IMG/VR virus record: IMGVR_UViG_3300042898_002309
Coordinates: 1 to 64,000 of that record
Source: a virus
Strand: one strand, 5' to 3'
Length of the DNA: 64,000 nt
The notes under the pieces were generated by a model that was not told the DNA's origin, did not search any database, and saw nothing but the letters and a program-made list of their open reading frames with translations. The position numbers were made by a program, and so were the translations under genes. This document shows positions 1,579 to 54,200 of the stretch, piece by piece. The first letter of the stretch is position 1, and the number at the start of each line of letters is the position of its first letter.

Positions 1579-2758
1579 AGAAGATAGTTTAGCAAAAACC
1601 AGTAAAGACTTGATGTTAAAAGAGCCCTATTATGGGTTCTTTTTAATCATGTTAAATAAAGTATGGAATAATAAAATAGTTCCTACTGCTGGTGTAAGTA
1701 AAAATAATATTAATTATCAACTTACAATTAATGAAGATTTCTGGACAAGTTTATCTGAGGATCATAGATTAGGTTTACTTAAGCATGAGTTACTTCATAT
1801 AGCTTTTGGTCATCTTACTATGTATTTTAAGTTTAGTGATAAAAAACTGGCTAATATAGCTATGGATATGGAGATTAATCAGTATATTTCAGATGAATTA
1901 CTACCAGAAGGTGGTATTAATATAGATGATTATCCTGATTTAAATCTTGATAGAAAAGCAGGTTGTAGATATTATTATGATAAACTACAACAGGCTAAAG
2001 AAGATAAAGACAAAAATGGCACAAGTGGTGATGATAATTTTGATAAGTTAGCTGATCAAATGGATGCTGGAGATGAAATGGCCAGTGATCATCCTACTTG
2101 GGCTGATTTTGAAGACATGACTGAAGCTGAGCAAAAGCTAATTGAGAAACAATTGAATAAAATTCTCAATGATGCTAAGGAGATGACTGAAAAGAAAAGA
2201 GGTAATATCCCTGGAGAAATTGAGGGTTTACTTGAAATGGAAGAAATTAAGCCTGCTAAATTTGATTGGAGAGGATATATCAGAAGATTTACTGGTGTGT
2301 CATCTAAAGTGTATACTAAAAAGATAAGGAGAAAAGAGAATAAAAGATATTCTGAGAATCCTGGTCTTAAGATTAAAATGAAACAACATATGTTGTTGGC
2401 TATTGATACTTCAGGATCAGTATGTGATCAAGAGTTACATGAATTTATGAATGAAATATTACACATCTATAAACAAGGTGTTGATATTACCATAGTACAA
2501 TGTGATACTGCTATCAAAAGCATAGAACCTTATAAAGGTAAAAATGAAATTGAGATATATGGAAGAGGTGGGACAGAATTTGATCCCGTCCTTGAATATT
2601 ATAATGAGAATATAAGAAAATATACTAGCTTAGTGTATTTTACTGACGGTGAGTGTTATACTAATGTAAAGCCAAAAGCTCCTGTATTGTGGGTGCTGTC
2701 TGAGCAATCTTATATGAACACGGAACTTCCCGGAAAAGTTATTAAGTTAGAAATTTAA
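1568..2758 (+). CDS. HExxH metallopeptidase + vWA domain protein (DUF2201-type, MoxR partner)
   Basis: LLKHELLH zinc motif, N.A.D.EINQ, MIDAS motif IDTSGS, GRGGTEF, YFTDG. Confidence 0.9.
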   Translation: MKSREDSLAKTSKDLMLKEPYYGFFLIMLNKVWNNKIVPTAGVSKNNINYQLTINEDFWTSLSEDHRLGLLKHELLHIAFGHLTMYFKFSDKKLANIAMDMEINQYISDELLPEGGINIDDYPDLNLDRKAGCRYYYDKLQQAKEDKDKNGTSGDDNFDKLADQMDAGDEMASDHPTWADFEDMTEAEQKLIEKQLNKILNDAKEMTEKKRGNIPGEIEGLLEMEEIKPAKFDWRGYIRRFTGVSSKVYTKKIRRKENKRYSENPGLKIKMKQHMLLAIDTSGSVCDQELHEFMNEILHIYKQGVDITIVQCDTAIKSIEPYKGKNEIEIYGRGGTEFDPVLEYYNENIRKYTSLVYFTDGECYTNVKPKAPVLWVLSEQSYMNTELPGKVIKLEI

Positions 2759-37682: not shown

Positions 37683-40600
37683 TTATGTAAACATAAAAGG
37701 AAAAACATTAGATCCCATTACATATGCCATTTGAACAGAACCACCTTTTTTACCTTGTGACATATTATTATACATATCAGGTATTTCATTACTTATACCT
37801 TGTTGATTCATATAATTATTTAACAATAGTCCTTGTGATTTTTCTGGTAATCCTGCAGCATTTATTTTATTAGCATATGCAAAATAATCTTTTTGTTGCT
37901 CAGGAGAAAAACCTCTATTAGTATCACGGTAATACATTCTACCACCTGATCTAGGATCAACTGCATAATTTGGATACATTTGATTCATTGCATCAGTTTG
38001 CCACATATTAGTAAGTAATGTATTTTCTGAGTCAACTAAGTTATGTCTTAGTGCACGTTTAGTATTATCAAATTGTTGATTAGCAATTACATTTTGATCA
38101 TATAACTGTTTATTTTGTGCTTGATTATATCTTTGAGCTTCATTTCTTATTTGTGCATTACTACCAGCAAATTGATTAGCTAAACCAACATTAAGATTAT
38201 TATATCTTCCTAATGTATCTGCTGCTTGTTTAGCTCCTTGTCCTTGAATAGATGCTGCTCTTGCAGATAAATCTTGTGCCCCCATAAATTGCCCTAATGC
38301 TTGATTAGTTATATTTGCTTGTTCAGATTGTGCTGCTAACTCTCTAGTAGGATCATAGAAAGTAGGATCTAACATTTCAGGATGATAACTAGCTGCCCAT
38401 GGTAAATATTTTTCAGCACTAAAATAATCTAATCCAGCATTAAGTCTATTTAATTTATCTTGTGCCCATGGTGCTGGAGGAATTTCAACATTTGGTTCTT
38501 GTTGGTATTCATCTTGAACAATTTCTTCTTCAGTTGGTATACCTTCTACATCAGTTTCATATAATTCTTTTTTTGTTGGAACATATGCTCCTTTTTGTTC
38601 TCCAGTAGTATCAGTATATACCCAATCAATAGGAGAAATTCTAGGATTTTTTTGTCCTTTTTCATCAGCCGCACCACTTTCATATGCTCCCCAATTTTCT
38701 AATGCTTTTTTTTCTTCTGGTGTTTTTACTTTATTATTTATTGCATCAGTAAATCCTTGAAAAGTAGCTTGTTCTAATGCTGTATCCCCTAATTTAATTC
38801 CAACTCTATCAAATGCTTTTCCTAAATCAGTAATGTCTTTATCCTTATATATTTTATATTGATTTTGTGCTTCAGTAAGAGTTATTGGTTTTCCAGCATC
38901 TGTTATAATTTTTTTAGCAACCATTTGTTGAGGTGTCAATAATTTACCAGTGGATGCATTTTCAAAATATCTTGCTTGAATACCATGTGCTTGTAATGCA
39001 GTATTTCTTTTTTGATGTTTAAGAAAAGCATCTCTTATTTCTTCATTACTAAACTGTTTATCTTTATATGCTGTATATGCTTTACTAGTTTTACCAGTAC
39101 TACTTCTATATTTAGTTTCATCTTTAAGTGCTGCACGTGTATAATCTGCAAGAACTTTTGTAAATTCAGGAGTATTAATGGATTTTTCCATTTCTCTAAA
39201 TGTTGCAGCATATTCTTTTGCATTATTCCAAGTAGTTCCTAAATCTTGACCAGTGTATGGATCTGATCCTACTGTTCTTTGAGATACTTTTTTATATTTA
39301 CCATCTGGCATAAGTATATAAACTGGTTTAGTACCTGCTTTAGCAAATTCTAAATCTCTTGCTTTAGCATATTCTTCATCAGTTTTATATTCACCTCTAT
39401 TAATTACAACAGCCCCTTCAGGAATATTATATTTAACTTCACCTTTACTTTGGTATCTAGTTAATGAACCACCATTTCTATATCCTGAAGGAGGAGTATA
39501 ACCATCAGTTCCAATACTACCTTGTGAAAATCTTGGAGTTTCACCTTTAAAACTAGGTGTAAAAGGAGCACTTTGATTAGTTTTTAAACTTGCATTTACA
39601 AAATTATTTTCACCTTGATTAGTTGGCACTTCAGGTGTTGAAGATACTTCAGGTACTTCAGGTGTTGAAGGTGTTGAAGATCCATAAGTATTATAATAAT
39701 TATTTTGACTTTGTGGTCTTACTTGTGTGTTATCATTATTTTGATTAGATGCTGCACCAGATTGAGGATAACCATAATAATTATTAATTACATTTTTTTT
39801 ATTTTTAATTCTACGTTTATTATTACCACCAAATAAATTACTAAAGAATCCACCACCACTTGTAGATTGATTATTTTCTGAATTATTTTCTGAACCAAAT
39901 TGTTCCATAGGATTAAAGCCACCCATAGTAGTTCCATATTGAGCCATAGGTGTTTCCATCATTTCCTCTTGTGGATTCTGTCCTTGAGGACCTTCAGCCA
40001 TTTCTTCTTGAGGATTTTGTTGTCCTTGTTGCATTACTTCTTGAATAGCAGCCTGTGCTTCTTCTTGAGGCATACCAACTTGTACAAGTATTTGCATTAT
40101 TGCTTGAGGAGGAACTTGATTTTGTAGTAATTGCATTATTACATCTTCAGGTTGTGCACCTTGTTGTAACATTTGTTGAACTTGTTGAACCATTTGTGCA
40201 AGAGGATCAGCACCACCTTGTTGTTGTGGTGCACCTTGTTGTTGCTGTTGTTGCATCATTGCCATTTCTTCAGGAGAAGGTTGACCTTGTTCCATTCCTT
40301 GTTGAGCTACTCTTAATCTTCTACCCATTTGAAAGCCATATCTTCCCATTGGAGATTCCATAGACTCTTCTTGAGGATTTTGCATACCTTGAACTTGCTC
40401 TACAGATTCTTCTTCAGGAGATTGTACACCCATACCTTGATTCTCATATGGATTTTGCATTGCTTGACTATTAACCTGTGCTTCTGGTTTAGCTTTTTGT
40501 GGTATCAAGTCTTCATCTTTAATGCCCATTTGTTCCATATATGGTCTAGCTACTTCAGGTATACCTTGTGGGAATCCTTTTTTACTTTCTTGTGCAATTG

Positions 40601-41117
40601 CTAATGCACCAAGTTTCATATTAATATTTTTAATCATTAACTCAGCAGACTTTTTATCTACTTTATCTGAGTTAGGATCTTCTAATATTTTTCTATACTT
40701 ATTAATATCATATGGTTTAGCTAGTTCAGCAGGAGTAAATGACCCAGTTTTTTTACCAAATTTAGCAAGTATTTTTGGATCTTTAATTTTCATAGATGCA
40801 GTATCACTGAATATAAATGTACCATCAGGCAAATTTAAAGGAGTTCCTCCATTACTATGTCTTTTTCCACCAATAAGCATGTGTTCAGGAAACCCATCTC
40901 CATTGATATCACCAAATGCAGACTCACCTTTTTCAGCTTCTAGATTAGCTTCATCTCTTGGTACTTGTTTTAGATACCTAGTATTTTCAAGATGTCTTGA
41001 TGCAGCATTCATATCAGCTCCACCAAAACTAATTACTTGCTTATTTAAATTGTTACCTGTAAAACCTCCTGATTTTGCTTGTGGTAATCCTTTAGTTATT
41101 TTTACTTTAAAGTACAT
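37683..41117 (-). CDS. virion cargo protein with Gln-rich low-complexity region
   Basis: 1144 aa; EAEKGE...GKRHSNGG...P.GTFIFSD motif; Q/M/P-rich segment; Q/N/A-rich helical C-terminus. Confidence 0.7.
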   Translation of the reverse strand: MYFKVKITKGLPQAKSGGFTGNNLNKQVISFGGADMNAASRHLENTRYLKQVPRDEANLEAEKGESAFGDINGDGFPEHMLIGGKRHSNGGTPLNLPDGTFIFSDTASMKIKDPKILAKFGKKTGSFTPAELAKPYDINKYRKILEDPNSDKVDKKSAELMIKNINMKLGALAIAQESKKGFPQGIPEVARPYMEQMGIKDEDLIPQKAKPEAQVNSQAMQNPYENQGMGVQSPEEESVEQVQGMQNPQEESMESPMGRYGFQMGRRLRVAQQGMEQGQPSPEEMAMMQQQQQQGAPQQQGGADPLAQMVQQVQQMLQQGAQPEDVIMQLLQNQVPPQAIMQILVQVGMPQEEAQAAIQEVMQQGQQNPQEEMAEGPQGQNPQEEMMETPMAQYGTTMGGFNPMEQFGSENNSENNQSTSGGGFFSNLFGGNNKRRIKNKKNVINNYYGYPQSGAASNQNNDNTQVRPQSQNNYYNTYGSSTPSTPEVPEVSSTPEVPTNQGENNFVNASLKTNQSAPFTPSFKGETPRFSQGSIGTDGYTPPSGYRNGGSLTRYQSKGEVKYNIPEGAVVINRGEYKTDEEYAKARDLEFAKAGTKPVYILMPDGKYKKVSQRTVGSDPYTGQDLGTTWNNAKEYAATFREMEKSINTPEFTKVLADYTRAALKDETKYRSSTGKTSKAYTAYKDKQFSNEEIRDAFLKHQKRNTALQAHGIQARYFENASTGKLLTPQQMVAKKIITDAGKPITLTEAQNQYKIYKDKDITDLGKAFDRVGIKLGDTALEQATFQGFTDAINNKVKTPEEKKALENWGAYESGAADEKGQKNPRISPIDWVYTDTTGEQKGAYVPTKKELYETDVEGIPTEEEIVQDEYQQEPNVEIPPAPWAQDKLNRLNAGLDYFSAEKYLPWAASYHPEMLDPTFYDPTRELAAQSEQANITNQALGQFMGAQDLSARAASIQGQGAKQAADTLGRYNNLNVGLANQFAGSNAQIRNEAQRYNQAQNKQLYDQNVIANQQFDNTKRALRHNLVDSENTLLTNMWQTDAMNQMYPNYAVDPRSGGRMYYRDTNRGFSPEQQKDYFAYANKINAAGLPEKSQGLLLNNYMNQQGISNEIPDMYNNMSQGKKGGSVQMAYVMGSNVFPFMFT

Positions 41118-41126
41118 AATATAAAA

Positions 41127-43685
41127 TTATAAGTATTCTAATTCACCTCCATTAGCAATGAAGTCATCTATTTCTTCTTGAGTCATGTATTGAGTATCCT
41201 CATCATCATCTTCAATATTTCCACCAGTAGCATAAACTCCTCCACCATATTTTGAAACACCATTGAATCCCATTTTATTTGGTCTAAATAATCCTGAGTT
41301 AGGATCATAGTCTCCTTGATCATAAGCATTATTTATACCATAATTACTTTCAGCAGATGTTGCATTTGCTAACATTTGATTTTCTTGTTTATTAGCTCTA
41401 ACTTGATCAGTAATATTTGCAAAAGCATTACCTGCTAATAAACTTAAATCTCCAAGTCCTGCTTTATCAATATCCCAAGCTTGTTTATTTCTAAATTTTT
41501 GAGAAACACCTTCTTGATCTTCATATTTAATACCTTCATTAACATAGTTACCATCTGAACCCATTCTTACTGCTGGAGTTTCACCTGTTAATGGATTTTT
41601 TTTAGGTTGTGAAAATGGATTTTCTAATAAATCTCCAGGTTCAGACATTTTAAAATTTGTATTTCTTTTTTTAGTTATATTACCTTCAAAGTCAACACAA
41701 TCACCTTTATAATCTTTTGTTGAACCCATTGGACAATCATTTATACCAGTTTCAAAACCTTCTGCAGCTTTATACAATTCTGGTATAGATACATCTCCTC
41801 CATAAGCATATTGAGTATAATCAATTGGCCCACCATATGCTTTATATGCAGGTCCTTGATGTCTAATTAAAAAATCTTGATATGAATTTTGATCATCTGA
41901 TAAATTAGAATTTGTACTACCAGCTGCTAATGCTTCAATTTTTTTTGCTTGATCAATTTGTTTTTGATTTTCTGGTGTATTAATAAATTCAGATTCAGGA
42001 TTTGAATTTGTAAAATTATTATTACCAAGAAATCTATTTAACTGTCTATCATCTCTATTTTCTTTTCTTTGAGCTCTTGGACTTATAGGTGGATAATAAG
42101 GTTCATTACTAGTAACTAATGGACTATTTTCTGAAGATTCAACAAGGTTATTAGGTCCTTCATATCCAACTCCCCATGGTATTAGTTTAGCTCCAAGTTG
42201 TTGTATTCCTGGTATTTTTGTATTTACCATTCCTCTACCTAATCTTTCACCAAAAGTTTTACCTCTATATTGTTCATCACTTGGATCACCCATTGATGCA
42301 TTATTTACATTACCTTGACCTGGATTATAAGTAGGTACTTTAAATGAAGCAATTTTTGGTGTAGCTCCATAGTTATATGTCATCTTTTTAGGTCTACCAA
42401 ATATTCCATATTTATCTACATTAACACTTGATGGTAATCTACCTGCAAGATCTGGTCCTGTATATCTTTCACCTGATTGAGTATAGTATGGAGAACCAAC
42501 AGCTTTATTATATTGTTCACCTCTACTAATAATAGGAGATCTAAATATACCTTGTCCATATCCACCTTGATTACCTCTTTGTTGCATGTACTGTTGCATC
42601 ATATATTGTTGCATCATTTGTTGCTGTTTTTGGGCAGTAGTAGTATTTTGAGTAACTAACTCATCATATTTCTTTTTATAGTCTTCAGTATCTGCAACTT
42701 TTTGATCTTCAGGTCTTTCAACAAAATCTGATATACCATTTTTATTTACATCTACAATACTATTACCAGTACCTTGATATTTATATAATGATCCACCACG
42801 TTTAGCATATCTTTGATAATCTAAATCAGAATCTTGATACTGTTCATCCATTGATTCATTATCACCTCCTCCTATAAATTTATATAAACCTTGACCTGTA
42901 TTACCTCCATATTGTTCTAATGCTGCAATATCATTTTGAGTATACATGTTATCAGAAAAGATATGTCTTCTAGCTGCAGTATTTTTAGCTAAATGATCAT
43001 ATGGACTTTCAGTATCTATTTGTTCTTGATTTATACCACCATCTTGTGCATATGCACCAACTTGTGGATTACCATATATAGCATTATATTGTTCTTCAGC
43101 TGCTTGTTTTTGTTGTGCTGAATTAACTGATTCACTAATACCTTTAAAGAAATTACTTACATGTTGTTCTCTACCACCAAGTACATCATCTGCTCCTGGA
43201 GAAGGTGTATTTCCACCTTGAGCCATTTTTGCAAACTTAGTATATTGATTTATAAAACTTCTTTTACTTGGTTTAGAACCACCATATCTTGCAACTTCTT
43301 CTTCTTCTTCTGCTCCTGCTGTTCCATCATCAACTACACTATTGATTATATCTTGATTACCAGTAACATACATTTGTCTTCTTGATTCTTCTTCTGCAGC
43401 ATTTTGTTCATCAAGTATTTTTTGTTGTTCTAATACTTGTGCTTCTGCTAAAGCAATTTTTTGTTTTTTTGAAATATCACTTTCACCATATAAATCATCA
43501 GCTTCTTCAATATATTTATCTGCAGTAGTTTCATCAATACCAGCTTGTATTAACTCTTCTTTAATTGCATCAATATCATAATCATCTACATTCATTTTTT
43601 CAGCAATAAAATTTCTTATTAATTGCTCTTGAGTAGGTTCATTTGACTGACCACCTGCTTTATATATTCTTACTCTCTTTTTCAT
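41127..43685 (-). CDS. virion cargo protein, low complexity, many xxxGG motifs
   Basis: 852 aa; about 12 xxxGG motifs; C-terminus YMTQEEIDDFIANGGELEYL. Confidence 0.7.
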   Translation of the reverse strand: MKKRVRIYKAGGQSNEPTQEQLIRNFIAEKMNVDDYDIDAIKEELIQAGIDETTADKYIEEADDLYGESDISKKQKIALAEAQVLEQQKILDEQNAAEEESRRQMYVTGNQDIINSVVDDGTAGAEEEEEVARYGGSKPSKRSFINQYTKFAKMAQGGNTPSPGADDVLGGREQHVSNFFKGISESVNSAQQKQAAEEQYNAIYGNPQVGAYAQDGGINQEQIDTESPYDHLAKNTAARRHIFSDNMYTQNDIAALEQYGGNTGQGLYKFIGGGDNESMDEQYQDSDLDYQRYAKRGGSLYKYQGTGNSIVDVNKNGISDFVERPEDQKVADTEDYKKKYDELVTQNTTTAQKQQQMMQQYMMQQYMQQRGNQGGYGQGIFRSPIISRGEQYNKAVGSPYYTQSGERYTGPDLAGRLPSSVNVDKYGIFGRPKKMTYNYGATPKIASFKVPTYNPGQGNVNNASMGDPSDEQYRGKTFGERLGRGMVNTKIPGIQQLGAKLIPWGVGYEGPNNLVESSENSPLVTSNEPYYPPISPRAQRKENRDDRQLNRFLGNNNFTNSNPESEFINTPENQKQIDQAKKIEALAAGSTNSNLSDDQNSYQDFLIRHQGPAYKAYGGPIDYTQYAYGGDVSIPELYKAAEGFETGINDCPMGSTKDYKGDCVDFEGNITKKRNTNFKMSEPGDLLENPFSQPKKNPLTGETPAVRMGSDGNYVNEGIKYEDQEGVSQKFRNKQAWDIDKAGLGDLSLLAGNAFANITDQVRANKQENQMLANATSAESNYGINNAYDQGDYDPNSGLFRPNKMGFNGVSKYGGGVYATGGNIEDDDEDTQYMTQEEIDDFIANGGELEYL

Positions 43686-43695
43686 ATAACATGTA

Positions 43696-43745
43696 ATATA
43701 TATTAAATATAATAATTTTTAGTTTACTGGATAAACATTAAAAGT
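43696..43745 (-). promoter_or_regulatory. putative late promoter
   Basis: Minus strand reads acttttaatgtttatccagtaaactaaaaattattatatttaatatata, similar to 37633-37682. Confidence 0.5.
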
Positions 43746-46700
43746 TTATTTGATTCTTTCTATGATATATCCTGCTTTTTCTAGTGCTTTAATTTCATCA
43801 TCATCTAAGTCATCTTCCCATGATTCAATATCACCACCATTTTTTTCTTGTTGTAATGCACCTACACCTAATGTTCCTGCAATTGGAGCAACTGCCCAAA
43901 CTTTATTAAATAACTTAGCAGCTGATTTTCCATTATCTTTTTTTATTATTTTAACAAACTGAGTATCTACTGGAGTATTTCCTAAAGCAACTTCTTTAAA
44001 CATTTTATCTGCTTGTTCAGGAGTTATTATATCATCAGGAGATAAATCAAAATATTTTCTAAGTTCCATTATTCTTGCCTGTACTTCTGTTGGGTCTGAT
44101 AAATAATCTATAAGTTTATCAACTTCTTTACTATTATTTATTTTTTTTCTTTCTTTAAGATAAGGATAATCAATTGCATCTTCAATAATTTTTTTTTGAT
44201 CAGTTAATTCTAAAGATTGTGCTTTTGTCCAATCATGTGTTAATTCATGTATTCCTGTACTTAATCTATTTTTAGGATCTAACCATCTTGAAACCCAATT
44301 ACCATGTCTTATAAATTGTGGTTTAGTATCTAAAGCATTAGGCTTAGTTTTAATTAATTTATCAACTTTAGGAATTTCAGATTCTAATTTATTTTTTGAA
44401 AGTGGAATATAAGTATTTTCAGGCATATTTAAAATTTCTCCTGGAATATCTTCATGAGTATAATTAATTCCTGCATTATCTTTATGAATATTAGGAAATT
44501 CAGTTAATTGCTCTATTATAGGATATTCTTGCAATCTTCCTGCAGGTTTATATCCACTAGTAAATTTAATTACTTCTTCTAAATTATGTTTTGCAATTGG
44601 TGAATTTTCAACTGTACCAAATACTGAATGATAGTTAGGTGATTTTAAACTTTCTTTATAACTATTAATAATTTTTTCTTGAGTTGCAGGATGACTCACC
44701 CATCCTTGCATCCAATTTTCAGCTTCTCTTAATGTTTTAAGTCTCTCTGGTGTTTTAGTTATAACATCATAAAATCTACCAGGTAATTTACCAATTCCTT
44801 TAATCATGTTAACAGCATTAGGAGAACCTGGTAATGTTTTACCAATTGCTTTAGTACCTTGATTTAAATATTTAGCACCTTGATTTATATCTTGAGCAAG
44901 AGATTTAACACCTTGTATAGCAGTTCTACCAGATCCTGGTACACCTGCAAATGCTAAACCTGTTTCTAAAAGACCTGTTGCATAATTACCTTTATGTAAT
45001 TCATTACCAGCATGACCACCCCAATATCCTGGATTAACTATATTAGCAAGATCAGAAATTTCAAATTGGCCTTTAGTTTGTCCTGTAGCTTTTAAATATT
45101 TATCATACTCAGGACTTTCAGTATTCATTAAACCTCTTCCCATTCCAGGTATATATGCTTGATTACCTGTTAATGCATTACCTGCCATAAGAATTGGGTG
45201 AGCAATAGCAGCTTGAGTTACATCTAAAGCTTTTTCAGCAAAAGACATTTTATTATATTTATTCCACTGTTCTTTTTCAAATGCTGCCTGTTCTTTTTTT
45301 CTTGCTTCACGTTTTGCAGTTTCTTGTGGAGAATTATAAAATGCTGCATTATTAATATCACTTACAACTTGTTTAGGTATTACTGTACGTGTATTATCAC
45401 TTACAGGTCCTCTAGGAATTGCATCATTTATTGCTTTTTGTTTTGCAAGTTTTTCTTTTGCAAGTTTTATAGCTTTTTCTTTATTAAGTTCTTGTTGATA
45501 TTTTTTTACAAGATCTTGCTTATTTAATTCTGGTGAGTCTGAATTTTTCTTTATATATTGTTGCTTATGATCTTGCATAAGTAAATTAAACTGAGGTGCA
45601 GGTTGCTCTAATGGTTTTTTATATACTGTTTTACCACCTTGTGCTTTATCTAATATACCTCCATTTTTAAATCCTCCTTCAATAGTTGCTGGTTGTAAAT
45701 GCCATTGATCTAATGCTGCACCAGTACCTATTGTTAAAGGTATAGCAGCTTTATATATATTAGGATTAGTCATGTCAAATTTACCATTATTTCTTAACAA
45801 AGATTTAATATTTTTTGGATTAATTATAGAATAGTTATTTTTATTAATTGGTGCACGCAAACCTCTTAGTACATCTCCATTAAATCCAGCATACATACCA
45901 GCATCTTTGATATTTTTAAAATTAACTGCATCATATCCTAATTTTTTAGCAATATCCGTAACTTCAGCTGTATCATATTTTTTCTTTGGCTTTATTCCCA
46001 AAACATTAAAATTTTCCTGACCAATTCTATTAATTAACTCATCATGATCAAGTTTTGTCCATAGTTTATTTTTAGCATCAAAAATTAATGGGTTTTTTGT
46101 TTTAGCAGCTAACTCATATCTTTTAGAAAAAGGATTTAATTTTAGTCTGTATGAATCAGCATCTTTAGGAGAATTAGCTAAATAAACCCCATCTTCTAAA
46201 TCACCTACTTTACCTTTTCTAAATTCTTGAATATTACCTTTATTAGAACCATGATATCCTGTAACATAGTTATCTCCAAAAGCATTTTTAAAGTTTTCAC
46301 TATTCTGTTGTACAAATTGTTCAGGAGTTCCTTTATAAGCAGAACCATCTGAATTTTTCATCCAAGTTCCATTAGTTTTAGTAGCTTCTTCTATTTTAGA
46401 ATACTCTTTTAATAAAGGTTCATCTGCAAGTATTTCTTTATTCCAATTACCCCAATTAATTTCAGACTGAAAAGGAGTTCTATAATCGTCTACTTTAGAT
46501 AATAAACCTGTTTCTGTTCCTAATGCTTTACCTAAATATTTAACACCTGGTTTTACACCTAATCTTACTGCATCATCAAGTAATCCTGAACCTGGTATAA
46601 ATCTTAATCCTTCTAAAAAAGCAGAACCATAATTACCCTTTCCTATATTTCTTACAACTTTATCTCCCGCATCAAAAAGATTTAATGTACTATTTAATGT

Positions 46701-49700
46701 ATTACCTACAAGATTTCTTCCTTCTACTACACCAGGATCAATACCTGCCATACGCATTTCATTAATATTATGTGGCATATTTTCTGCACCTCCTCCTGAT
46801 ATAGCATATTCTGCAGCAGTAAATGGATTAGTAATATATTCCCATGCTCTATTTGAATTACTTTGTGTTGGTGCTGCTTGTACTGCATCAGGTTCACCTA
46901 TTTGACCTACACCTGCACTTTTCCAATGCATGTTCTCAATATCATCTAAATCTTTTTGAGTAATTGCATATCCATTTTTTTTACCACTTGCAATATAATC
47001 TTTTTGAGAAGTTGCAATTTTATCTTTAACTTTTGTATATGCATCTTTACCTGTTACTTTAAACTTTTCATCAAATAATTTTTGTGCAGTTTTTTGTTGT
47101 ACAGTGGGTTGAACTGGTTTCTTTTTACTTGGTGTAACATTTTTTTCATTACTCCATCCAGCATTAGATTTACTATTTTGATCATTATTATATCTATCAA
47201 GTGCTTGTTTTTTTTGTATTGCTAAACCTTGTCCAACTATTTGTCCTAATGGAGAAGTATAAAAATTATAAGGTTTTTCTTTAACAGCAACTTTAGGTTG
47301 TACTTCACCTTTTTTTTGATAAGAATCTAATGCTCCACCTTGTCTAAATCCTCCTTCAATAGTTGCTGGTTGTAAATGCCATTTAGTTCTAGGTACTTTT
47401 TTATATCCCTGCAACCAATGTTGTTTATAAACATTAACATTTGGATGATTAAATGAAAGAGGTGCATTACCTGGTGTTGTAATTTCATAACCAAAATTTT
47501 CAAATGGAGATACACCATTTGTATTAAAATTTGCTATATCATGAGAATTAGTTACTTCAACCATATGAGGACCTTCAAATTTATTCCAATTCCACACTCT
47601 ATTATTTTTTCCACCAGCAAATGATGTTTTATCAATTACTTCTTGAGGAAACTTATATTTTTTAGCATCAAATGGAACACCTTGACTATAATATGTTTCT
47701 TCAAATGCTTTATTACTAAAACTTGGATCATATACATCTACTTGATTACTTCTAAATACACCAGATTGTTGTGCATCTTCTAATCCTTCTTTACCTAACA
47801 TTCTATATGCTGATGTAGGTTCAGGTTTCCATGCCCAGGGATTTACATCACTTACTTTAGATAATAAACCTGTTTCTGTTCCTAATGCTTTACCAACAGT
47901 TTTAGCACCTTGTGCAACATCATCAGCAACTGACTTAAATCCTGCTTTTGATCCTATTAATCCTGCTGCAATTTCTGCAGTTCCTGCTGCTGCTTCTTTC
48001 CAATCTTTAGTACCTTGTGATACATCATACCAATCTCTAACATTTTTAGGAGTTTGATAAAAACTATTAGCCATACCTGCGGCCATTGCAGCATTACCTA
48101 CAGTAGCACCTGGTACAGCAGCCATTCCTGGAAGTGACATTGCTCCTATAGCACCTGCGGCTTCTAATGCAGCTGGAGCAGCAAAAGGTAAAGTCCAAAA
48201 CCAATCAGCAGAACCTGCACTTTGTGGACCAAAATTAGGACCATGTAGTTTACGTGCCAATTCTTTTGACTGTTCTTGCCATTGCCAGTTTCTATATTTT
48301 TCTGCATATTCTTTAGGAGAAAGTTGTATTCCTTTTGGTCTATTATTATTAGCAGGTGTAACAGTTACTTCATCTAGATATCCAGTACTAGATATTATGC
48401 CTTTAGCTTTGTCACTTTCATATTTAGCTTTTTGTTGTTGATAATTTTTATACCATTCCTCATCAGGTAATGTTCCATCTGGTTCTCCCCCTTCTTTAAA
48501 ATTTTCAGTAAGAACTGCTGGTTTTAAATGTTTTTTATTATCTTGAATTACATTAGTATTAGAAGTACCAGTATTAATATTATAATTTTGACTACCAGCA
48601 GCCTCATCTGTCCATGGAACTTCTTTGTATGTAGTAACTGGTCTTTGTCTTTTTATATTTCCTAATACAGGATCTTTAATCCAATAATCTTCTACACCTT
48701 GAACTGGTACACGGAGTGTTCTTTGTACAGCTTTTTGTACAGGTATAGTCATTTGTTCTCTAACAGGTTTAGATAAAATGGATTGCTCAGGTCTTTTAAA
48801 TTCTTGATATGGTATATTATTAAGTGGTGTAACTTCTTCAATAGATTGTACAGGTTGTACAGGTTTTTTATATACATTATGTATTACTGGTTTTTTATAT
48901 TGTCCAACTCTATGTAATCCATTATTATATGTAACAAAACCTACTGGTTTATTTAATTTTTTAGTTTTATCTGAAAAAGAACCAATATTTAAATAATCCA
49001 TATAATCTTTGTCACTGAGTTTTATACCAAATTGTTTATCTTGATCTTTTAAATTTTTTAATGAAGTATTATATGACTCATATTTTTTTGTAGCAGAATT
49101 TATAGTTTGATTTTTTGGTGTTTTTTTAGTTTTATCTGCTTTAATAACATTATTTATTCCACTATTATAAAAAGATAAACTATCAGATTCAGCTGCAAAG
49201 GCTTTATTATAGTCATCTCTATTAGTATGTGTTACTGTTCTACCTGTTTGAGCTTTATGAAGTATACCACCATATTTACGTGTAACTACAGGTTGAGCAC
49301 CTCTTTGTTGTTGCTGATATTCAAGATTTTTTTGTTGGAAAGTATCACTATCTCTTTTTCTTCTAGCTGCCTCTCTTTGTTCTTGAGTATATCCTTCAGG
49401 TAAATCTAAATTCTCATCACCAGCTAATACACCATATCTTGGACCGGCATAATGAACAGGTTTTTTATATGGTTTAGCTAGAATAATTTGTTGTTCAGGT
49501 CTTGTAAATTCTTGATATGATATAGGTTTAAGAGGAGTAACTTCCTCAACAGGTTTTACTGGGTATTTTTTTAAATAATCTGCAGTAGGTGTATTACCAT
49601 TTTTATCTAGTATTTTTTTATTAACAGGTTTTTTATCTATTGGTTTTACTGATTGTATTGAAGAAGATAATCCTAATGTTTTTAATTTTGATTGAGGTAT

Positions 49701-51269
49701 TCCAGATGCACCATATTTTTTAAATCTTATTTTTATTTCATCATCTGAAAGCATGTTTGCAGGTTTTATAGCAAGAGGATCATAATAAGGCAGCGTTGTA
49801 ATATATCCAGGTAATTTTTTATCTATTTCTTCATCTTTTTTAGTTCTATAAATCCATTCATTTATAGATTTTTCTGGATCTTTTAATTTAATTGCTGCAC
49901 CAATATTGATTAATTTTTTTTTATAATTTGCTTTTTTTATAGGATCATTTTCTAATTTATAACGTATTATATTGGTTGTCCAACTATTTGAATATGATGG
50001 AGCATTAGATGTAGTCATTTTTTGTATTTTAGCTATATCTGGTGATACATTCTCTGCAAATGTATATTTTTTAGGTTGATAAGTAATTTGTCCTTGTGGT
50101 TTTATTCTAGTATCATATTTTAACAATGGAGCTTTTGGATCTATAGCTCCTGTAATTACGTCAGACATATAAATAGCATTAGCATTTTTATTATTTTTAA
50201 TAATAGTTTTATTTGAACTAGAAACACTAGGGTGCGCTAAGGTTTCTTTTTGAATGTTTTTTAAATCCCAAGAACCATCATACCAAAGACCAATTTCTGG
50301 ATTATTATAATATGGTTTTAAATTATCATAAAAACCTTTTAACTTAATAGCATTATTATATAATGATAAACTATCAGAAGCTGTAGCAAGTCCTGTTTGT
50401 GCTTTAACTAGTTCATGTTGTACAAAACCACCCGCTTTAAATCCTTTCATCATTGGTGCCACTTCTTTATAGTGTTCCGCAAAATATTGTGCTTCTTCAG
50501 GAGTTCTGAAGTTTATATCTTCTTTACTTGGGGGAGGGTTTTCATTATACTCTAATTCATTACCACCTTTATCTTGTAACAATGGTACTGCTTGATTTCC
50601 CATAGAAGCCATAAAATGTGTACCTAAATCTCCATTTCCAAACTCATAAGTTTTAGGATTAGGTGAAACCATCCTTTGAGCTGCTGGATTTTTAAATTCG
50701 TTTTCAGTAGCCATTCTAGCTTTCATCATAGCATTCATAGCATTTTTGTCAACAGGTATTTCTTCTGCTCTAGGACCCGCTGTATTTTGTGGACCACCAT
50801 CTTGTGCTTCAGGTAATTCTTCTACTACATAACCACCATCTCTATATGCTTGTATTTCTTCATCAGTAAGATCAAGATCTTCATAATCAGCTTCTCCACC
50901 ATTTTCTTTAGTAGGTAGATTAAAACCATAATTTAATTCATAGTGACTTAATGGATTAGGATTAAGATTAATAGTACCAAGTTTAGAACCACCCTTCTTA
51001 GCCATAGGTGTTTCATCTACATAAGATGCACCAGGAAAGTTATAATCTTGATTAGGTTGCATCATTGATCCAGGACCAACATTAGGTTGAGCCCATACAG
51101 GATAAGGTACACCTTGCATAGTAATATCATTACCAGGGATTCTAGTTTTTTGACCTGGATATTTCCATTGACCTGCTGGATCAGTTATTATATCTTTTGG
51201 TTTACCTGGTGCTTTTGCTTTACCTAATTCTGATACAGCTTTAGATAATACTTTTTTATTGAATCCCAT
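43746..51269 (-). CDS. modular polyvalent effector/cargo polyprotein (two ART-like domains, HExxH metallopeptidase, internal repeats)
   Basis: 2507 aa; YHGS..GVY....A..Y..GYDAV..PKNIKS..NNG.FD (ART-PolyVal-like); YRMLG..G..D...SG.FR (ART-like); IHELTH...YLSDPTEVQAR; repeated cassette borders. Confidence 0.8.
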   Translation of the reverse strand: MGFNKKVLSKAVSELGKAKAPGKPKDIITDPAGQWKYPGQKTRIPGNDITMQGVPYPVWAQPNVGPGSMMQPNQDYNFPGASYVDETPMAKKGGSKLGTINLNPNPLSHYELNYGFNLPTKENGGEADYEDLDLTDEEIQAYRDGGYVVEELPEAQDGGPQNTAGPRAEEIPVDKNAMNAMMKARMATENEFKNPAAQRMVSPNPKTYEFGNGDLGTHFMASMGNQAVPLLQDKGGNELEYNENPPPSKEDINFRTPEEAQYFAEHYKEVAPMMKGFKAGGFVQHELVKAQTGLATASDSLSLYNNAIKLKGFYDNLKPYYNNPEIGLWYDGSWDLKNIQKETLAHPSVSSSNKTIIKNNKNANAIYMSDVITGAIDPKAPLLKYDTRIKPQGQITYQPKKYTFAENVSPDIAKIQKMTTSNAPSYSNSWTTNIIRYKLENDPIKKANYKKKLINIGAAIKLKDPEKSINEWIYRTKKDEEIDKKLPGYITTLPYYDPLAIKPANMLSDDEIKIRFKKYGASGIPQSKLKTLGLSSSIQSVKPIDKKPVNKKILDKNGNTPTADYLKKYPVKPVEEVTPLKPISYQEFTRPEQQIILAKPYKKPVHYAGPRYGVLAGDENLDLPEGYTQEQREAARRKRDSDTFQQKNLEYQQQQRGAQPVVTRKYGGILHKAQTGRTVTHTNRDDYNKAFAAESDSLSFYNSGINNVIKADKTKKTPKNQTINSATKKYESYNTSLKNLKDQDKQFGIKLSDKDYMDYLNIGSFSDKTKKLNKPVGFVTYNNGLHRVGQYKKPVIHNVYKKPVQPVQSIEEVTPLNNIPYQEFKRPEQSILSKPVREQMTIPVQKAVQRTLRVPVQGVEDYWIKDPVLGNIKRQRPVTTYKEVPWTDEAAGSQNYNINTGTSNTNVIQDNKKHLKPAVLTENFKEGGEPDGTLPDEEWYKNYQQQKAKYESDKAKGIISSTGYLDEVTVTPANNNRPKGIQLSPKEYAEKYRNWQWQEQSKELARKLHGPNFGPQSAGSADWFWTLPFAAPAALEAAGAIGAMSLPGMAAVPGATVGNAAMAAGMANSFYQTPKNVRDWYDVSQGTKDWKEAAAGTAEIAAGLIGSKAGFKSVADDVAQGAKTVGKALGTETGLLSKVSDVNPWAWKPEPTSAYRMLGKEGLEDAQQSGVFRSNQVDVYDPSFSNKAFEETYYSQGVPFDAKKYKFPQEVIDKTSFAGGKNNRVWNWNKFEGPHMVEVTNSHDIANFNTNGVSPFENFGYEITTPGNAPLSFNHPNVNVYKQHWLQGYKKVPRTKWHLQPATIEGGFRQGGALDSYQKKGEVQPKVAVKEKPYNFYTSPLGQIVGQGLAIQKKQALDRYNNDQNSKSNAGWSNEKNVTPSKKKPVQPTVQQKTAQKLFDEKFKVTGKDAYTKVKDKIATSQKDYIASGKKNGYAITQKDLDDIENMHWKSAGVGQIGEPDAVQAAPTQSNSNRAWEYITNPFTAAEYAISGGGAENMPHNINEMRMAGIDPGVVEGRNLVGNTLNSTLNLFDAGDKVVRNIGKGNYGSAFLEGLRFIPGSGLLDDAVRLGVKPGVKYLGKALGTETGLLSKVDDYRTPFQSEINWGNWNKEILADEPLLKEYSKIEEATKTNGTWMKNSDGSAYKGTPEQFVQQNSENFKNAFGDNYVTGYHGSNKGNIQEFRKGKVGDLEDGVYLANSPKDADSYRLKLNPFSKRYELAAKTKNPLIFDAKNKLWTKLDHDELINRIGQENFNVLGIKPKKKYDTAEVTDIAKKLGYDAVNFKNIKDAGMYAGFNGDVLRGLRAPINKNNYSIINPKNIKSLLRNNGKFDMTNPNIYKAAIPLTIGTGAALDQWHLQPATIEGGFKNGGILDKAQGGKTVYKKPLEQPAPQFNLLMQDHKQQYIKKNSDSPELNKQDLVKKYQQELNKEKAIKLAKEKLAKQKAINDAIPRGPVSDNTRTVIPKQVVSDINNAAFYNSPQETAKREARKKEQAAFEKEQWNKYNKMSFAEKALDVTQAAIAHPILMAGNALTGNQAYIPGMGRGLMNTESPEYDKYLKATGQTKGQFEISDLANIVNPGYWGGHAGNELHKGNYATGLLETGLAFAGVPGSGRTAIQGVKSLAQDINQGAKYLNQGTKAIGKTLPGSPNAVNMIKGIGKLPGRFYDVITKTPERLKTLREAENWMQGWVSHPATQEKIINSYKESLKSPNYHSVFGTVENSPIAKHNLEEVIKFTSGYKPAGRLQEYPIIEQLTEFPNIHKDNAGINYTHEDIPGEILNMPENTYIPLSKNKLESEIPKVDKLIKTKPNALDTKPQFIRHGNWVSRWLDPKNRLSTGIHELTHDWTKAQSLELTDQKKIIEDAIDYPYLKERKKINNSKEVDKLIDYLSDPTEVQARIMELRKYFDLSPDDIITPEQADKMFKEVALGNTPVDTQFVKIIKKDNGKSAAKLFNKVWAVAPIAGTLGVGALQQEKNGGDIESWEDDLDDDEIKALEKAGYIIERIK
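45668..45706. repeat. 39-bp direct repeat B, copy 2 (encodes WHLQPATIEGGF)
   Basis: taaatcctccttcaatagttgctggttgtaaatgccatt, identical to 47345-47383. Confidence 0.95.
46491..46532. repeat. 42-bp direct repeat A, copy 2 (encodes GKALGTETGLLSKV)
   Basis: tactttagataataaacctgtttctgttcctaatgctttacc, identical to 47853-47894. Confidence 0.95.
47345..47383. repeat. 39-bp direct repeat B, copy 1
   Basis: Identical to 45668-45706. Confidence 0.95.
47853..47894. repeat. 42-bp direct repeat A, copy 1
   Basis: Identical to 46491-46532. Confidence 0.95.
48783..49555. repeat. diverged ~65-bp direct repeat pair (48783-48847 and 49491-49555)
   Basis: Both encode EEVTPL..I.YQEF.RPEQ; roughly 80% DNA identity by eye. 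Confidence 0.8.
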
Positions 51270-54200
51270 TATCTGAGTGATATTTGATTTTTACTATTGC
51301 TCAATTTAATAATCATATTAACATCCTGTGAATCAGTTCTGCTCAAATATAAGAAATTTAAATAATTCCTGAATTTTTTTCTTTGCAGTTCTGTTTTATT
51401 ATAATTTAAATTTGTTGGAGTTAATGTTTTTATATATCCATTAGCTTGTGTTACCCATATTGATTCTTGATCATAACTTCCTGCTAATACTGTAGTACTA
51501 GGAACTAATGGTCCTGTTGGAGGATAATTAGATCCAATTGGGAACTCACCTCTATTTCTTGTTATATCCCAGAATTGATTAAATCTATATTTGTTTTCTT
51601 CTTTAGAGAATAGTATATCTATAGATGTAGGATTAATAAGAGGATATGTATTAGCAAGAGTAATATTATTTTTAGGAAAGATATTAAGATTTAAGTATCC
51701 TGATACTTGTTCTGAATTAAATATTACTGCTTTATCAAAATTATAATCCAACACATGGAATTGATCTACACAGTTATTAGAATGATTTTTATAGCATTCA
51801 AGTATATACTCTATAGATTTTAAAGTGGTAACTGTCTGTCCCGTAATAAGGGGTATCTCAACTTCAAATGGATGTTGAACTCCATAAAATTTACAGTAAC
51901 TATTACATACTGCATTATGTTTCCATACTTTACCTCCTTTAGTTGTTGCAAAATATTGTCTTGCTGGTAATACAAAGTCTGGATGCCAGTCATGAAAAGA
52001 TATCCAATGTTGACTTTTAGGGTCAAAACTTGTAGTCCATGAAGCACTTTCAAATATAAGTGGATTACCTAATTCAACTTTTGCTATACCATCTACTAAG
52101 AAATAATCACCATAAGAAAAATATACTACTCTATTTGCATATTGAGGTTTTAATTTATAATCTTTTTTACAGAAATATATAACACCATTATAATTATCAT
52201 ATACTGCTTGAGTACCAATACCTGCTACAGGATTATCTGTATGTGGATATTCTGGAAAATCTTCAGTAAGTTTATATGGTAAGAATAAACTAAACCACCA
52301 TTTCATTCCTGCTTGAGATATTTCTGTTAAACCTTGAGCAAATGAAAATACTCTTCCTTGATTTTGAGACATATAATACATTCCTGCAGGAGTACCAATA
52401 ACACCAAATTTATTTTGAGAAGACCCATACTCATACTCTACATCTGATATAGTAATATTTTGAGGAGGATTAGAAAATAAGCCACCATCACCTATAGTAA
52501 GTTTAGTACCTAACTCAGTTGTAAGAGTATCTACACCTTGATACATTAATGGACTAGCATTTTGGAATGTAATAAACATACCAGTTTTAGCATAAGGTTT
52601 TATACTAGTAATTCTATTCTTAAAGTCATGAAAATTATTTACTAAATATACAAACCAAGAATCTTTTGTAGACCAGTTTTGTTGTGGTAGTGAATATACT
52701 ACTCTATCAGGATAATAAGTATAACATAATTGGGATACAACAGGATTATAATATCTTGATTGTAGATTACCTTGTGAAAAATATTGTGTAAATATTTTAG
52801 ATATACTTAATGAATAGTCATATGCATAATAGTTACCCTGTGTTATTGTATTAGGGTCCATATTAAACATTTCTGGTAAATTAGTATATGAATTTACATC
52901 ATAATTTTTTTGCCAAGTTTCTAAACCAGGTTGTCTAAAATCTACTATTACATCTGACTCAACAAAGAAATCTCTTACTGAAGAATTAGCTAAATAAAAA
53001 TATGAATTTTTAGCACCAAATACTCCAGGATATGTATCTGGAAAACCTGATGCTGTATCATTTGAATACTTATATTTACGTATACTATTTACATAGTAAT
53101 CTAAGTTATAAAAACCTGTTGGTAAAAGCCCTGTTCCAGCAGGTGGATTAATTAAATCTGCAATTGAACTTGGTGTAAGATCACCTACATCATATTCTTC
53201 ACTGTTAGCCCAAAATCTTGGTTCAGCTATCATATGTCTTAGAATATAATTATATTCATAACCATCAGGTTGTCCATATAACCAGTCATAGAAAAAGAAC
53301 ATGTTGTTTTTTTCAGTATATCTATTTACATAAGTGTCTCCTCCAAATAATACAGGAGTTTGAGTTATTGTTTCTAAAGTAACTAACTTAGCTGCAGTAC
53401 CATAAGGAGTACTAATAGTACACCAAAAACTACTAAATGTTACTGGTATATTTTGATTATTATAATTTAATTTTTGTTCTGAAGGTGTAATAGGTATTTC
53501 TTTAAGTGAATCAAGTTGACCATATTGATTTCTTAATCTAACTTTGATACCAACATAATGACTTGCAATACTAAGATTAAATTCATTAGTCTTTTTTGAT
53601 TTCATGTCAACTGGTAATCCAATACCTGCTTGTATAGCAGTACCCAATGTTACAAGTGAAGTATCACCATATCCTGTAGCTGTAGAAGGATTAAGAATAT
53701 AATCAGGTCCAAAATTTTGATTTAAATTATTAGTAGTTCTTAAAGTAACAGTTGTCTGTCTTTGAAGATTATTAATTATATAACTAATTCCACTGAAAGG
53801 CTTAAGACCTTGAATATTATTTTTTAAATATAAACTATCTTCAATATTAAATCTTTGTCTTTTACCTGTAACTGGTGCAGCAAAACTACTATAGAAACCT
53901 TCTGCAATAGCTTGTAATGCATATTGTCTATATGGTATTAAAGCATATACTAATCTAATTGTTGTATTTGCTCCTTCTGAAAAATAAAAAAATGATTGTT
54001 GAACAAAATTAGCAATACCAAAAATACCTGCATATTGATATTTAGGTACATCTTTAGTATATGATCTTCCGGTAACACCTGTACCACCTAGTCCTGCACT
54101 GGTAGTATTTGCTGTTATATATGCACCATATATACCTGCAAAAAGCGGATTACCAAGAGGATTTAAGGCATCAGTTAAATATAAACCTGTACTTAAATAA

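Follow-up and report, generated by a model that had tools for sequence, protein, structure and literature searches.

Three adjacent genes on the minus strand of a 64,000-nucleotide (nt) stretch of viral DNA (the first 64 kb of the 97,024-bp IMG/VR virus record IMGVR_UViG_3300042898_002309, hereafter the window; G+C 25-33%) encode proteins of 2507, 852 and 1144 amino acids (aa) that are punctuated by short di-glycine motifs. Comparison of these sequences with related loci indicates that the 'xxxGG' strings are shorthand for three related elements of a single junction grammar, namely a basic leader at the N-terminus, an internal junction and an acidic tag. The motif appears to be real, widespread and previously undescribed; no published description was found in a literature search, which missed most subscription journals. 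The three proteins are probably carried inside the particle of this uncultured crAss-like phage, and our tentative reading, held with a little less than even confidence, is that the elements are hinge-and-docking handles, which remain uncut at least up to ejection and also provide the crossover points at which modules are exchanged.

The locus is anchored by the muzzle gene (51269..56566, minus strand; Pfam crAss_MUZ, PF25731, E=2.2e-31), the stop of which overlaps the start of the first downstream gene (43746..51269, minus strand). The latter encodes the 2507-aa protein, a predicted mosaic cargo protein of the polyvalent type. It is followed by the gene for the 852-aa protein (41127..43685, minus strand), a mostly disordered putative cargo protein with about 10 conserved GG sites, and then by the gene for the 1144-aa protein (37683..41117, minus strand), which combines an N-terminal leader, a conserved GGKRHSNGG...FIFSD domain, Q-rich low-complexity stretches, one minimal junction and a C-terminal part made of KKGG and a hydrophobic tail. 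All the motif strings enumerated in the original prediction, which was made from the DNA letters alone, are found in these three open reading frames (ORFs), and the ORFs themselves exist as described there.

By itself, GG shows just a mild excess in the three proteins (observed/expected 1.15-1.72), and it is the surrounding residues that carry the signal: K or R occupies position -2 at 16 of the 41 GG sites (~5 expected), and A, Y or F occupies position -3, also at 16 of 41 (~6.4 expected). With 200 composition-preserving shuffles of the proteins as the background, the core motif [FYWAM][KRQ].GG is observed 13 times (shuffle mean 1.15, maximum 5), the paired form GG.{1,6}[LIVM].[KERS][AY][QKW].{1,2}G 9 times (mean 0.04) and the acidic tag pattern 3 times (mean 0). 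The motif thus exceeds its composition-matched background, one of the points on which the original prediction had been staked, and it does come in pairs, as had been noticed. The remainder of the genome contains 8 core matches, compared to 2.65 expected, and 5 of these reside in four small basic proteins described below. There is a single core match in the 7671 residues of all three giant ejection proteins, in agreement with the earlier impression that the motif is rare there, and the capsid, scaffold and portal proteins of this genome contain none. The strings PITGGSF and RTGGNNMFKRF, located close to the C-termini of capsid and scaffold, were considered as motif copies and rejected, since relatives do not conserve them.

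As a control, 35 related loci were retrieved with the muzzle protein only (32-89% identity), so that they were not selected for the motif. Across these loci, the observed and shuffled counts of the core are 14 and 6.8 in the upstream structural proteins, 5 and 7.7 in the muzzle, and 105 and 9.2, 108 and 7.9, and 41 and 5.8 in the first, second and third downstream genes, respectively; the regular expression was derived from this window and the loci are interrelated, so these counts are not independent trials. The motif is at chance in the structural proteins and the muzzle, where neither the protein of this genome nor its homologues show an excess, and is approximately tenfold enriched in the downstream genes. 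This distribution agrees with a confinement of the motif to proteins expected inside the particle. Loci with a muzzle only 32-42% identical still keep the motif, at positions that are non-homologous to those in this genome.

The leader is a basic strand at the N-terminus with the consensus M-K-x-K-V-K-I-x-K-L-P-x-A-x-x-G-G; in all proteins collected, there are 63 N-terminal instances of this grammar and 1 internal instance. The 852-aa protein starts with the leader MKKRVRIYKAGG (43650..43685, minus strand), in which M1, K2, K3, V5, R6, Y8, K9, G11 and G12 are near-invariant; its relatives start with the same leader, and AlphaFold2 predicts a strand at residues 5-8. The leader of the 1144-aa protein, MYFKVKITKGLPQAKSGG (41064..41117, minus strand), has M1, V5, I7, P12 and G17 invariant, including in relatives with muzzle identity down to 32%.

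The internal junction consists of an aromatic residue or Ala, K/R, any residue, G-G, any residue, L, P or another residue, K, A/Y, Q, any residue, an optional K, G, E/K and V, with information content above the background from -3 to +12 around GG. The motif pairs of the original prediction are explained by this structure since a junction comprises GG plus a second, K-A/Y-Q-x-G part. The acidic tag is a segment of about 30 residues in which GG and 6-9 acidic residues are followed by [LM]-[TSD]-x-x-E-I-x-x-[YFL]-x-x-x-G-[GY]-x-[IV]-E-[EY]-[LI]. Both the 2507-aa and the 852-aa proteins terminate in this tag, and it occurs internally once, at aa 121-160 of the 2507-aa protein, where it continues directly into L-P-E-A-Q-D-G-G.

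A profile of the tag, searched against 1.84 billion proteins, matched 925 representative clusters (50% identity) at E<=0.001, 317 of them at E<=1e-10, with 2-5 tag copies per protein among the matches; the protein with the top match (P0113) is encoded directly after a muzzle gene. The best 149 tag-bearing proteins contain 127 tags whose end is no more than 4 residues from the C-terminus, and 238 internal tags, nearly all of which are followed by x-A/Y-Q-x-G(G). The internal tags score as high as the terminal ones (medians 40.2 and 36.5 bits, respectively), suggesting that they are working parts of long chains and not relics. Where a gene ends in the tag, the next gene almost always opens with a basic leader. 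No Pfam or PHROGs family was found for the leader, junction or tag when whole proteins and sub-regions were searched. DUF7210 was considered as a tag family and rejected: a single sub-threshold match on the tag of one relative was not reproduced on eight other tags. Copies of the motif are encoded by varied codons, which implies that it is kept at the protein level.

Amid fast-evolving, mosaic, mostly disordered proteins, the elements stand out as strongly conserved islands, and they occur only in genes that follow the muzzle gene and in small basic proteins encoded near the capsid gene. When the 852-aa protein is aligned with 54 orthologues (mean column identity 34%), conservation averages 0.875 for the GG residues, compared to 0.547 for the other glycines and 0.557 for all residues; the pairs G11/12, G135/136, G157/158, G216/217, G260/261, G629/630, G821/822 and G846/847 are invariant or nearly so. 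The AlphaFold2 model built with the orthologue alignment has a mean predicted local distance difference test (pLDDT) score of 44.3, with 585 of the 852 residues, and all the motif stretches, below 50. The C-terminal tag is modeled somewhat better, as a helix (836-844) and a strand (848-851) with pLDDT ~61-67. Being mostly disordered, the model offers no fold that could be used for a structure search, and the equally poor ESM Atlas model of this protein gave no usable match. Short conserved motifs in disordered sequence look like binding handles or processing sites rather than the cores of folded domains.

The 2507-aa protein begins with a module (aa 1-95; 50985..51269, minus strand) that ends in ETPMAKKGG and is recovered in BLAST alignments covering 1-95 or 27-100. 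No other part of the first downstream gene is shared as widely, the module being present in nearly all relatives, including those from loci with 32% muzzle identity (e.g., representatives P0146, P0192 and P0222). A full internal junction at aa 121-160 (50790..50909, minus strand) consists of KENGG, the acidic strand-helix-GG-strand tag EADYEDLDLTDEEIQAYRDGGYVVEEL and PEAQDGG, and was recovered by the tag profile at 87 bits in the library search. Downstream are the junction KGFKAGGFVQHELVKAQTG (aa 275-296; 50382..50447, minus strand; BLAST boundaries at 293-298 and 309-311), the minimal junction VTRKYGGILHKAQTG (aa 662-679; 49233..49286, minus strand; boundaries at 664-666 and 679-682) and a core motif, ENFKEGG (aa 922-928; 48486..48506, minus strand), the matching place of which in a relative reads NFKEGGTLVKAQNG. 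Two copies of a repeat (repeat B), each with a junction, are located at aa 1297-1321 (WHLQPATIEGGFRQGGALDSYQKKG; 47307..47381, minus strand; boundary at 1293-1294) and aa 1856-1880 (WHLQPATIEGGFKNGGILDKAQGGK; 45630..45704, minus strand; boundaries at 1853-1857 and 1868-1873). The payload between the junctions includes an ART-PolyVal domain (aa 1672-1831; 45777..46256, minus strand; PF18760, E=1.2e-10, 42.8 bits, cutoff 31.2). The last payload module (aa ~2100-2470) contains the HExxH motif HELTH (aa 2341-2345; 44235..44249, minus strand), which makes it a candidate zincin-like peptidase of the polyvalent-protein kind on the strength of the motif alone, given that no Pfam match covers the region even at E<=1. 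Several further payload modules have no Pfam family match. The protein ends in the acidic tag EKNGG-DIESWEDDLDDDEIKALEKAGYIIERIK (aa 2473-2507; 43749..43853, minus strand), two residues past the last strand.

In the 852-aa protein, the leader is followed by a minimal junction, RYAKRGGSLYKYQGTG (aa 292-307; 42765..42812, minus strand), which reads YAKRGGTLNKYQDKGEV in relatives, by a double junction, YKAYGGPIDYTQYAYGGDVSIPELYKAAEG (aa 614-643; 41757..41846, minus strand), in which G629 and G630 are invariant, and by SKYGGGVYATGG and the C-terminal acidic tag ending in MTQEEIDDFIANGGELEYL (aa 811-852; 41130..41255, minus strand), with G821, G822, M834, T835, I839, F842, G846, G847, E848, L849 and E850 invariant. 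The 1144-aa protein contains a minimal junction, SGYRNGGSLTRYQSKGEVK (aa 544-562; 39432..39488, minus strand), and terminates with QGKKGG and the conserved hydrophobic tail SVQMAYVMGSNVFPFMFT (37686..37757, minus strand), an ending common to all its orthologues.

The first downstream gene is highly mosaic. In the four closest contigs, where the muzzle is 87-89% identical, and in two others with a 99% identical capsid protein, the counterparts of the 2507-aa protein are only 512-1580 aa long (862-1580 aa in close relatives). What they have in common with it is limited to 95-310 residues at the start, ~40 at the end and modules scattered in between. The BLAST alignment boundaries that adjoin motifs are located at 91-100, 121-126, 158-159, 293-298, 664-666, 679-682, 1293-1294, 1853-1873 and 2461-2476. 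With the regular expression and the distance cutoff of the test set in advance, 8 of the 37 boundary clusters lie within 15 residues of a motif, compared to 3.6 expected (P=0.023). The earlier claim that the motifs fall at module boundaries, including directly after both WHLQPATIEGG copies, is borne out, with only modest statistical support. The payload modules between the junctions of relatives include a VanY-type peptidase, a SET domain and a lysozyme-like domain. In two contigs, the capsid protein is 99% identical, the muzzle only 72-74% identical and the first cargo gene rebuilt; parts of the virion module evolve, or are exchanged, at very different rates. A search for a protein that fuses two adjacent genes of another locus at a junction found none, so the equivalence between a gene boundary and an internal junction is suggested by the grammar alone.

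Outside the three genes, the motif recurs in four lysine-rich proteins of 186, 125, 183 and 66 aa that are encoded directly downstream of the capsid gene, beyond the window (genome positions 67018-68887). These proteins contain MKTGG, MKSGG, AKCGG, MKKGG, MKMGG and GGAAKSLPKAQLG, i.e., 5 core motifs compared to 0.28 expected, and carry M at -3 (MKxGG). The 186-aa protein ends in DUF6321, a C-terminal domain of many phage proteins of 99-928 aa. In a close relative, small basic genes with the same motifs, including an N-terminal ...VLPKAQLG, form a different and larger array, and more distant relatives have one or no such genes; the number and content of the genes vary even in a relative whose capsid protein is 99% identical. 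The presence of the motif on two sets of proteins suggests a common property, which is probably residence inside the capsid, itself a prediction.

The closest structural precedent is crAss001, in which the cargo proteins C1 (gp45) and C2 (gp46) have been described (Bayfield et al., 2023, PMC10172136; PDB 7QOG and related entries). These are likewise encoded directly after the muzzle gene, are kept within the capsid and the tail, and are mostly unresolved or disordered. In the present genome, the three cargo ORFs are followed on the 3' side by a 1044-aa ORF and then by giant ORFs of 2116, 3469 and 2086 aa; like the C1 and C2 genes of crAss001, the cargo genes are located 3' of the muzzle gene and 5' of the virion RNA polymerase block, and the gene layout is that of the block for cargo and virion RNA polymerase in crAss001 and phi14:2. 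Neither of these is a near relative of the phage, whose best muzzle identity in the GenBank phage set is 25%; the relatives of the phage are uncultured contigs in IMG/VR, and a tblastn search with the 852-aa protein gave zero matches in GenBank phages.

The crAss001 gp45 protein begins with a basic leader ending in GG (MAKKKIKRRGKMPPNIFDTGG). Two of its pieces are docked, residues 214-245 in the tail barrel and 425-552 on the portal (PMC10172136); [AF]-x-GG motifs flank both, and the modeled 425-552 segment passes through A-F-G-G-W at 425-429 (GG at 427-428). crAss001 lacks the pairing of K/R-x-GG with K-A-Q-x-G and the acidic tag, and as a weaker motif in another family, the gp45 precedent is only a hint. 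The structure paper describes no junction motif and contains no occurrences of 'cleav' or 'protease' (PMC10172136). BLASTP gave no significant match to gp45 or gp46, and only short look-alike strings, GG-x-H...[VI]FSD and AYGGP, are shared. The possibility that the domain at the N-terminus of the 1144-aa protein corresponds to the portal-bound domain of gp45 was rejected: its profile misses 7QOG chain M at E<=1, and the hhalign probability is 5%. Among cultured phages, none with the strong motif was found; the nearest are the Cellulophaga phages phi4:1 and phi17:2, in which gp041 contains a weaker form, [FY]-Q-x-GG (4 instances, 0.28 expected). A domain near the N-terminus of the 1144-aa protein, ...IGGKRHSNGGTPLNLPDGTFIFSDT... 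(40788-40955, minus strand), is conserved in all relatives and is recognisable by eye in gp041 of the cultured phage phi17:2 (ETHEKGGVAIDLKEGEKVLSDHT) and in crAss001 gp45 (FINEGGSHEENP...YVFSD), the link to gp45 being without statistical support.

The 2507-aa protein also resembles the polyvalent proteins of phages and conjugative elements (Iyer, Burroughs, Anand, de Souza, and Aravind, 2017, PMC5512222) in being a giant late-gene product with at least two unrelated effector modules (ART-PolyVal and the HExxH module) and mosaic relatives. As the class requires, it is encoded in a virion tail/cargo block, and it is probably delivered along with the DNA. The class is defined by its domains, among which a zincin-like MPTase is frequent but not obligatory, and zincin-mediated processing has been proposed (PMC5512222). 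The paper describes no linker or junction peptide ('linker' and 'glycine' have no occurrences), whereas here the junction grammar is the most conserved feature.

Under the reading that we tentatively favor, the proteins packed inside the crAss-like particle would use a cargo junction grammar with the GG pairs as flexible turns and hinges, and with the flanking strands and the tag as handles for docking that become folded only when bound. The end of a module would be signaled by an aromatic residue or Ala, K/R, any residue and G-G, followed either by a strand and K-A/Y-Q-x-G-(E/K)-V or by the acidic strand-helix-GG-strand tag of about 30 residues and P-K-A-Q-x-G-G. Such handles might hold the largely unfolded cargo chain at fixed sites in the procapsid, the portal or the tail, or on a neighboring cargo protein, with the held chain ready for threading out through the tail. 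Given that every module carries the same short conserved ends, the junctions could double as crossover points. Several lines of evidence argue for uncut handles. Leaders and tags persist at genuine protein ends, which have nothing to be separated from; a leader ending at a scissile bond would be shorter and less symmetric than the element, which spans approximately -3 to +12; short conserved motifs in disordered sequence are typical of binding handles; and no GG-specific protease family was detected in the genome, while the motif is absent from the capsid, scaffold and portal. Docking or packaging, which the original prediction had offered as its alternative, thus seems to fit the facts better than cutting. 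Other observations pull in the opposite direction. Docking has no support from structure or complex prediction, and the only fold test of a leader with a tag gave a pLDDT of 39. One tag per module exceeds what the packaging of a covalent chain needs and fits cutting before or after packaging, and the short GG-ending leaders at the N-terminus, like the short tails that follow GG, have the look of propeptides. The phage also encodes zincin-like motifs, with HELTH located in the 2507-aa protein and HEAWH in the 3469-aa protein; payloads of different compartments, namely cell-wall enzymes (VanY) and likely cytoplasmic effectors (ART), occur side by side; the crAss001 precedent involves a weaker motif in a different family; and giant fused proteins are expected to be processed (PMC5512222; bioRxiv 10.1101/2020.03.07.982082).

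These objections lead to the principal rival, namely that the junctions are processing sites, with cleavage by a protease of the phage at GG or K-A-Q-x-G, or close by, either within the procapsid or once ejection has taken place; we regard this as a serious rival, although less likely than uncut handles. The protease would most likely be a co-packaged zincin-like domain that removes the leaders, frees each tagged module and releases the enzymes. Processing would account for the 10-18-residue leaders that end in GG, for the short tails after GG, for an own tag on every module and for payloads aimed at different compartments. It is also consistent with the depletion of Pro and Lys directly after GG (ratios 0.33 and 0.09), and the motif on the small basic proteins recalls the adenovirus core proteins. 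Autoproteolysis of polyvalent proteins has been proposed, with processed P1 DdrB cited (Iyer et al., 2017, PMC5512222), and Drobysheva et al. anticipate that, in crAss-like phages, fused virion RNA polymerase polyproteins undergo cleavage (bioRxiv 10.1101/2020.03.07.982082). Three candidate metallopeptidases are at hand: the HELTH module, which is missing from most relatives that keep the motif, the HEAWH motif at aa 913 of the 3469-aa protein, and a DUF2201_N putative metallopeptidase with a VWA-like domain (1568..2758, plus strand; PF13203, E=8.8e-16; PF09967, E=3.3e-17; PF18894, E=2.2e-6). The last is followed by an AAA (MoxR-like) ATPase (2772-3947, plus strand); the pair lies in the early or replication-side block. 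The search for a C39/adenain/Prp-like protease called for by the original prediction came back empty. When practically every ORF of the 97-kb genome with a length of ~100 aa or more was scanned with Pfam, no Peptidase_C39, C5 or C48/Ulp, no Prp-like protease and no S77 or S78 prohead protease was detected, although remote homologues may fall below the sensitivity of the hidden Markov models. The portal-scaffold-capsid stretch and its neighbors, where a prohead protease gene (S77, S78, U9, U35) would be expected, gave no peptidase match. The sequence-based analysis found no sign of cutting at the GG sites. GG-Pro occurs at conserved sites (KAYGGP, AQDGGP; 19 of 1026 instances overall), conservation reaches ~12 residues past GG, leaders and tags are retained at true protein termini, internal tags are as conserved as terminal ones, and the capsid and scaffold lack the motif. 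Moreover, crAss001 gp45 is modeled uncut across a related GG, and the zincin-bearing virion RNA polymerase of phage N4 is packaged unprocessed (PMC5512222). The proposal that these genes encode polyproteins cut at di-glycine by a maturation protease is therefore not supported in that form: no sign of cutting and no matching protease were found, and the register differs from the adenain and double-glycine-leader consensus sequences.

The remaining possibilities carry less weight. In a non-covalent variant of docking, which we regard as improbable, each acidic C-terminal tag would pair, zipper-like, with the basic leader on the product of the following gene, forming a head-to-tail cargo train in gene order (muzzle, 2507-aa, 852-aa, 1144-aa, portal) that is pulled through the tail, with the internal junctions as the covalent version of the same coupling. 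The near-constant succession of a tag-ending gene by a leader, the strictly N-terminal position of the leader, the complementary charges of the strands, the tiny conserved intergenic gaps (1-11 or ~60 nt) and the single terminal cysteines on neighboring giant proteins would all fit. The AlphaFold2 test of leader-tag pairing across the 852/1144 boundary (TAA read as Q, 12 sequences), which gave the pLDDT of 39, returned a helix across the junction and neither favors nor disfavors the pairing, and a search for modules that are fused in one protein and split in another turned up no such pair. A purely DNA-level role, with the junctions serving as shared sequence for module recombination and the peptides inert, seems very improbable: the mosaic first cargo gene, the BLAST boundaries near motifs and the two copies of the WHLQPATIEGG peptide in one gene (reportedly identical in nucleotide sequence) speak for it, whereas the codons differ among motif copies, the peptide grammar is kept where the muzzle is 32-42% identical and DNA homology is gone, leaders and tags have strict terminal positions, and internal tags are as well conserved as terminal ones. 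As for a by-product of Gly-, Lys- and Tyr-rich low-complexity sequence, these proteins are indeed Gly-rich (8-10%), with Q-rich low-complexity runs and the mild excess of GG noted above (1.15-1.72-fold); this explanation is refuted by the shuffles (1.15 vs 13 and 0.04 vs 9), the 35-locus control and the invariance of the same positions across orthologues of the 852-aa protein, and its probability is negligible.

Signals with partly similar properties exist in other systems. The internal proteins of phage T4 carry an N-terminal capsid targeting sequence that is cut after L/I-x-E by the prohead protease gp21, which also cuts the capsid and scaffold proteins. The likeness lies in a short terminal peptide common to unrelated head-internal proteins that combines targeting with a defined adjacent site. 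The T4 signal, however, is exclusively N-terminal, with an L/I-x-E cut and a prohead protease, none of which is found here, and in prohead-processed systems (T4 gp21, phiKZ gp175 type) the same site is expected in scaffold and capsid, where the core motif is absent in this genome. Adenovirus protease recognizes (M/I/L)xGG-x and (M/I/L)xGx-G sites in core and cement proteins, and the double-glycine leaders of bacteriocins are cut by C39 peptidases. Shared with these is a di-glycine after a conserved upstream residue, on small basic and virion-internal proteins. In the present motif, hydrophobic or aromatic A/F/Y is at -3 and K/Q/R at -2, unlike adenain sites with M/I/L two residues before GG; and unlike in C39 leaders, conservation extends to ~+12 past GG and most sites are internal, and neither C5 nor C39 was detected. 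In polymorphic toxins, junction motifs (VENN in CdiA, PxxxxDPxGL in Rhs) separate a constant carrier from an exchangeable payload, and encapsulins use cargo-loading peptides. By analogy, a short peptide marks such a border here, and a short terminal peptide could dock cargo inside an HK97-fold shell, but there is no sequence relation to either system, and here there are several junctions per protein, in a phage particle.

How megadaltons of crAss-like cargo are recruited, ordered and passed through the tail is a question left by the crAss001 structure. A short conserved peptide code, common to all cargo modules and found in at least 925 clusters, could answer part of it, and this code sits where relatives swap enzymes. 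Handles that proved sufficient for packaging would also offer a means of bringing foreign proteins into phage particles in laboratory hosts; junctions that turned out to be cut would represent a new viral processing system.

Other features of the genome deserve mention. Tail ring proteins 1 and 2 are encoded at 56579-57595 and 57595-58266, and the Crassvirus major capsid protein lies beyond the window at genome positions 70011-71627, all identified by Pfam. Amid the head gene block (genome 65505-65957), there is a gene for a 150-aa DUF5856 protein that PHROGs labels a starvation-inducible DNA-binding (Dps-like) regulator. Near the phage lysozyme gene (genome 82081-83611) is a gene for a Peptidase_C92 (permuted papain-like amidase), which is most simply interpreted as a second lysis enzyme rather than a maturation protease.

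The 852-aa and 1144-aa genes are separated (41118-41129) by one TAA and an in-frame 9-nt spacer, TAA TTTTRTATT ATG. The arrangement of TAA and a 9-nt in-frame spacer is conserved in 12 of 12 loci checked, with TAA TTTTATAAG ATG in distant loci, and may reflect tight translational coupling or occasional readthrough. A 200-aa ORF antisense to the start of the 1144-aa gene (40522-41124, plus strand) is most likely a chance open frame opposite a conserved gene. Among the giant proteins (11451-34478, minus strand), the 2116-aa protein ends in ...NNSPIC, the 3469-aa protein starts with MAC and ends in ...DPFKC, and the 2086-aa protein starts with MKC; these single terminal cysteines at consecutive gene boundaries could form a head-to-tail link between the giant proteins. 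Finally, the 2086-aa protein (11451-17711, minus strand) contains a LysM domain (aa 1767-1809), which suggests that it contacts peptidoglycan at ejection.

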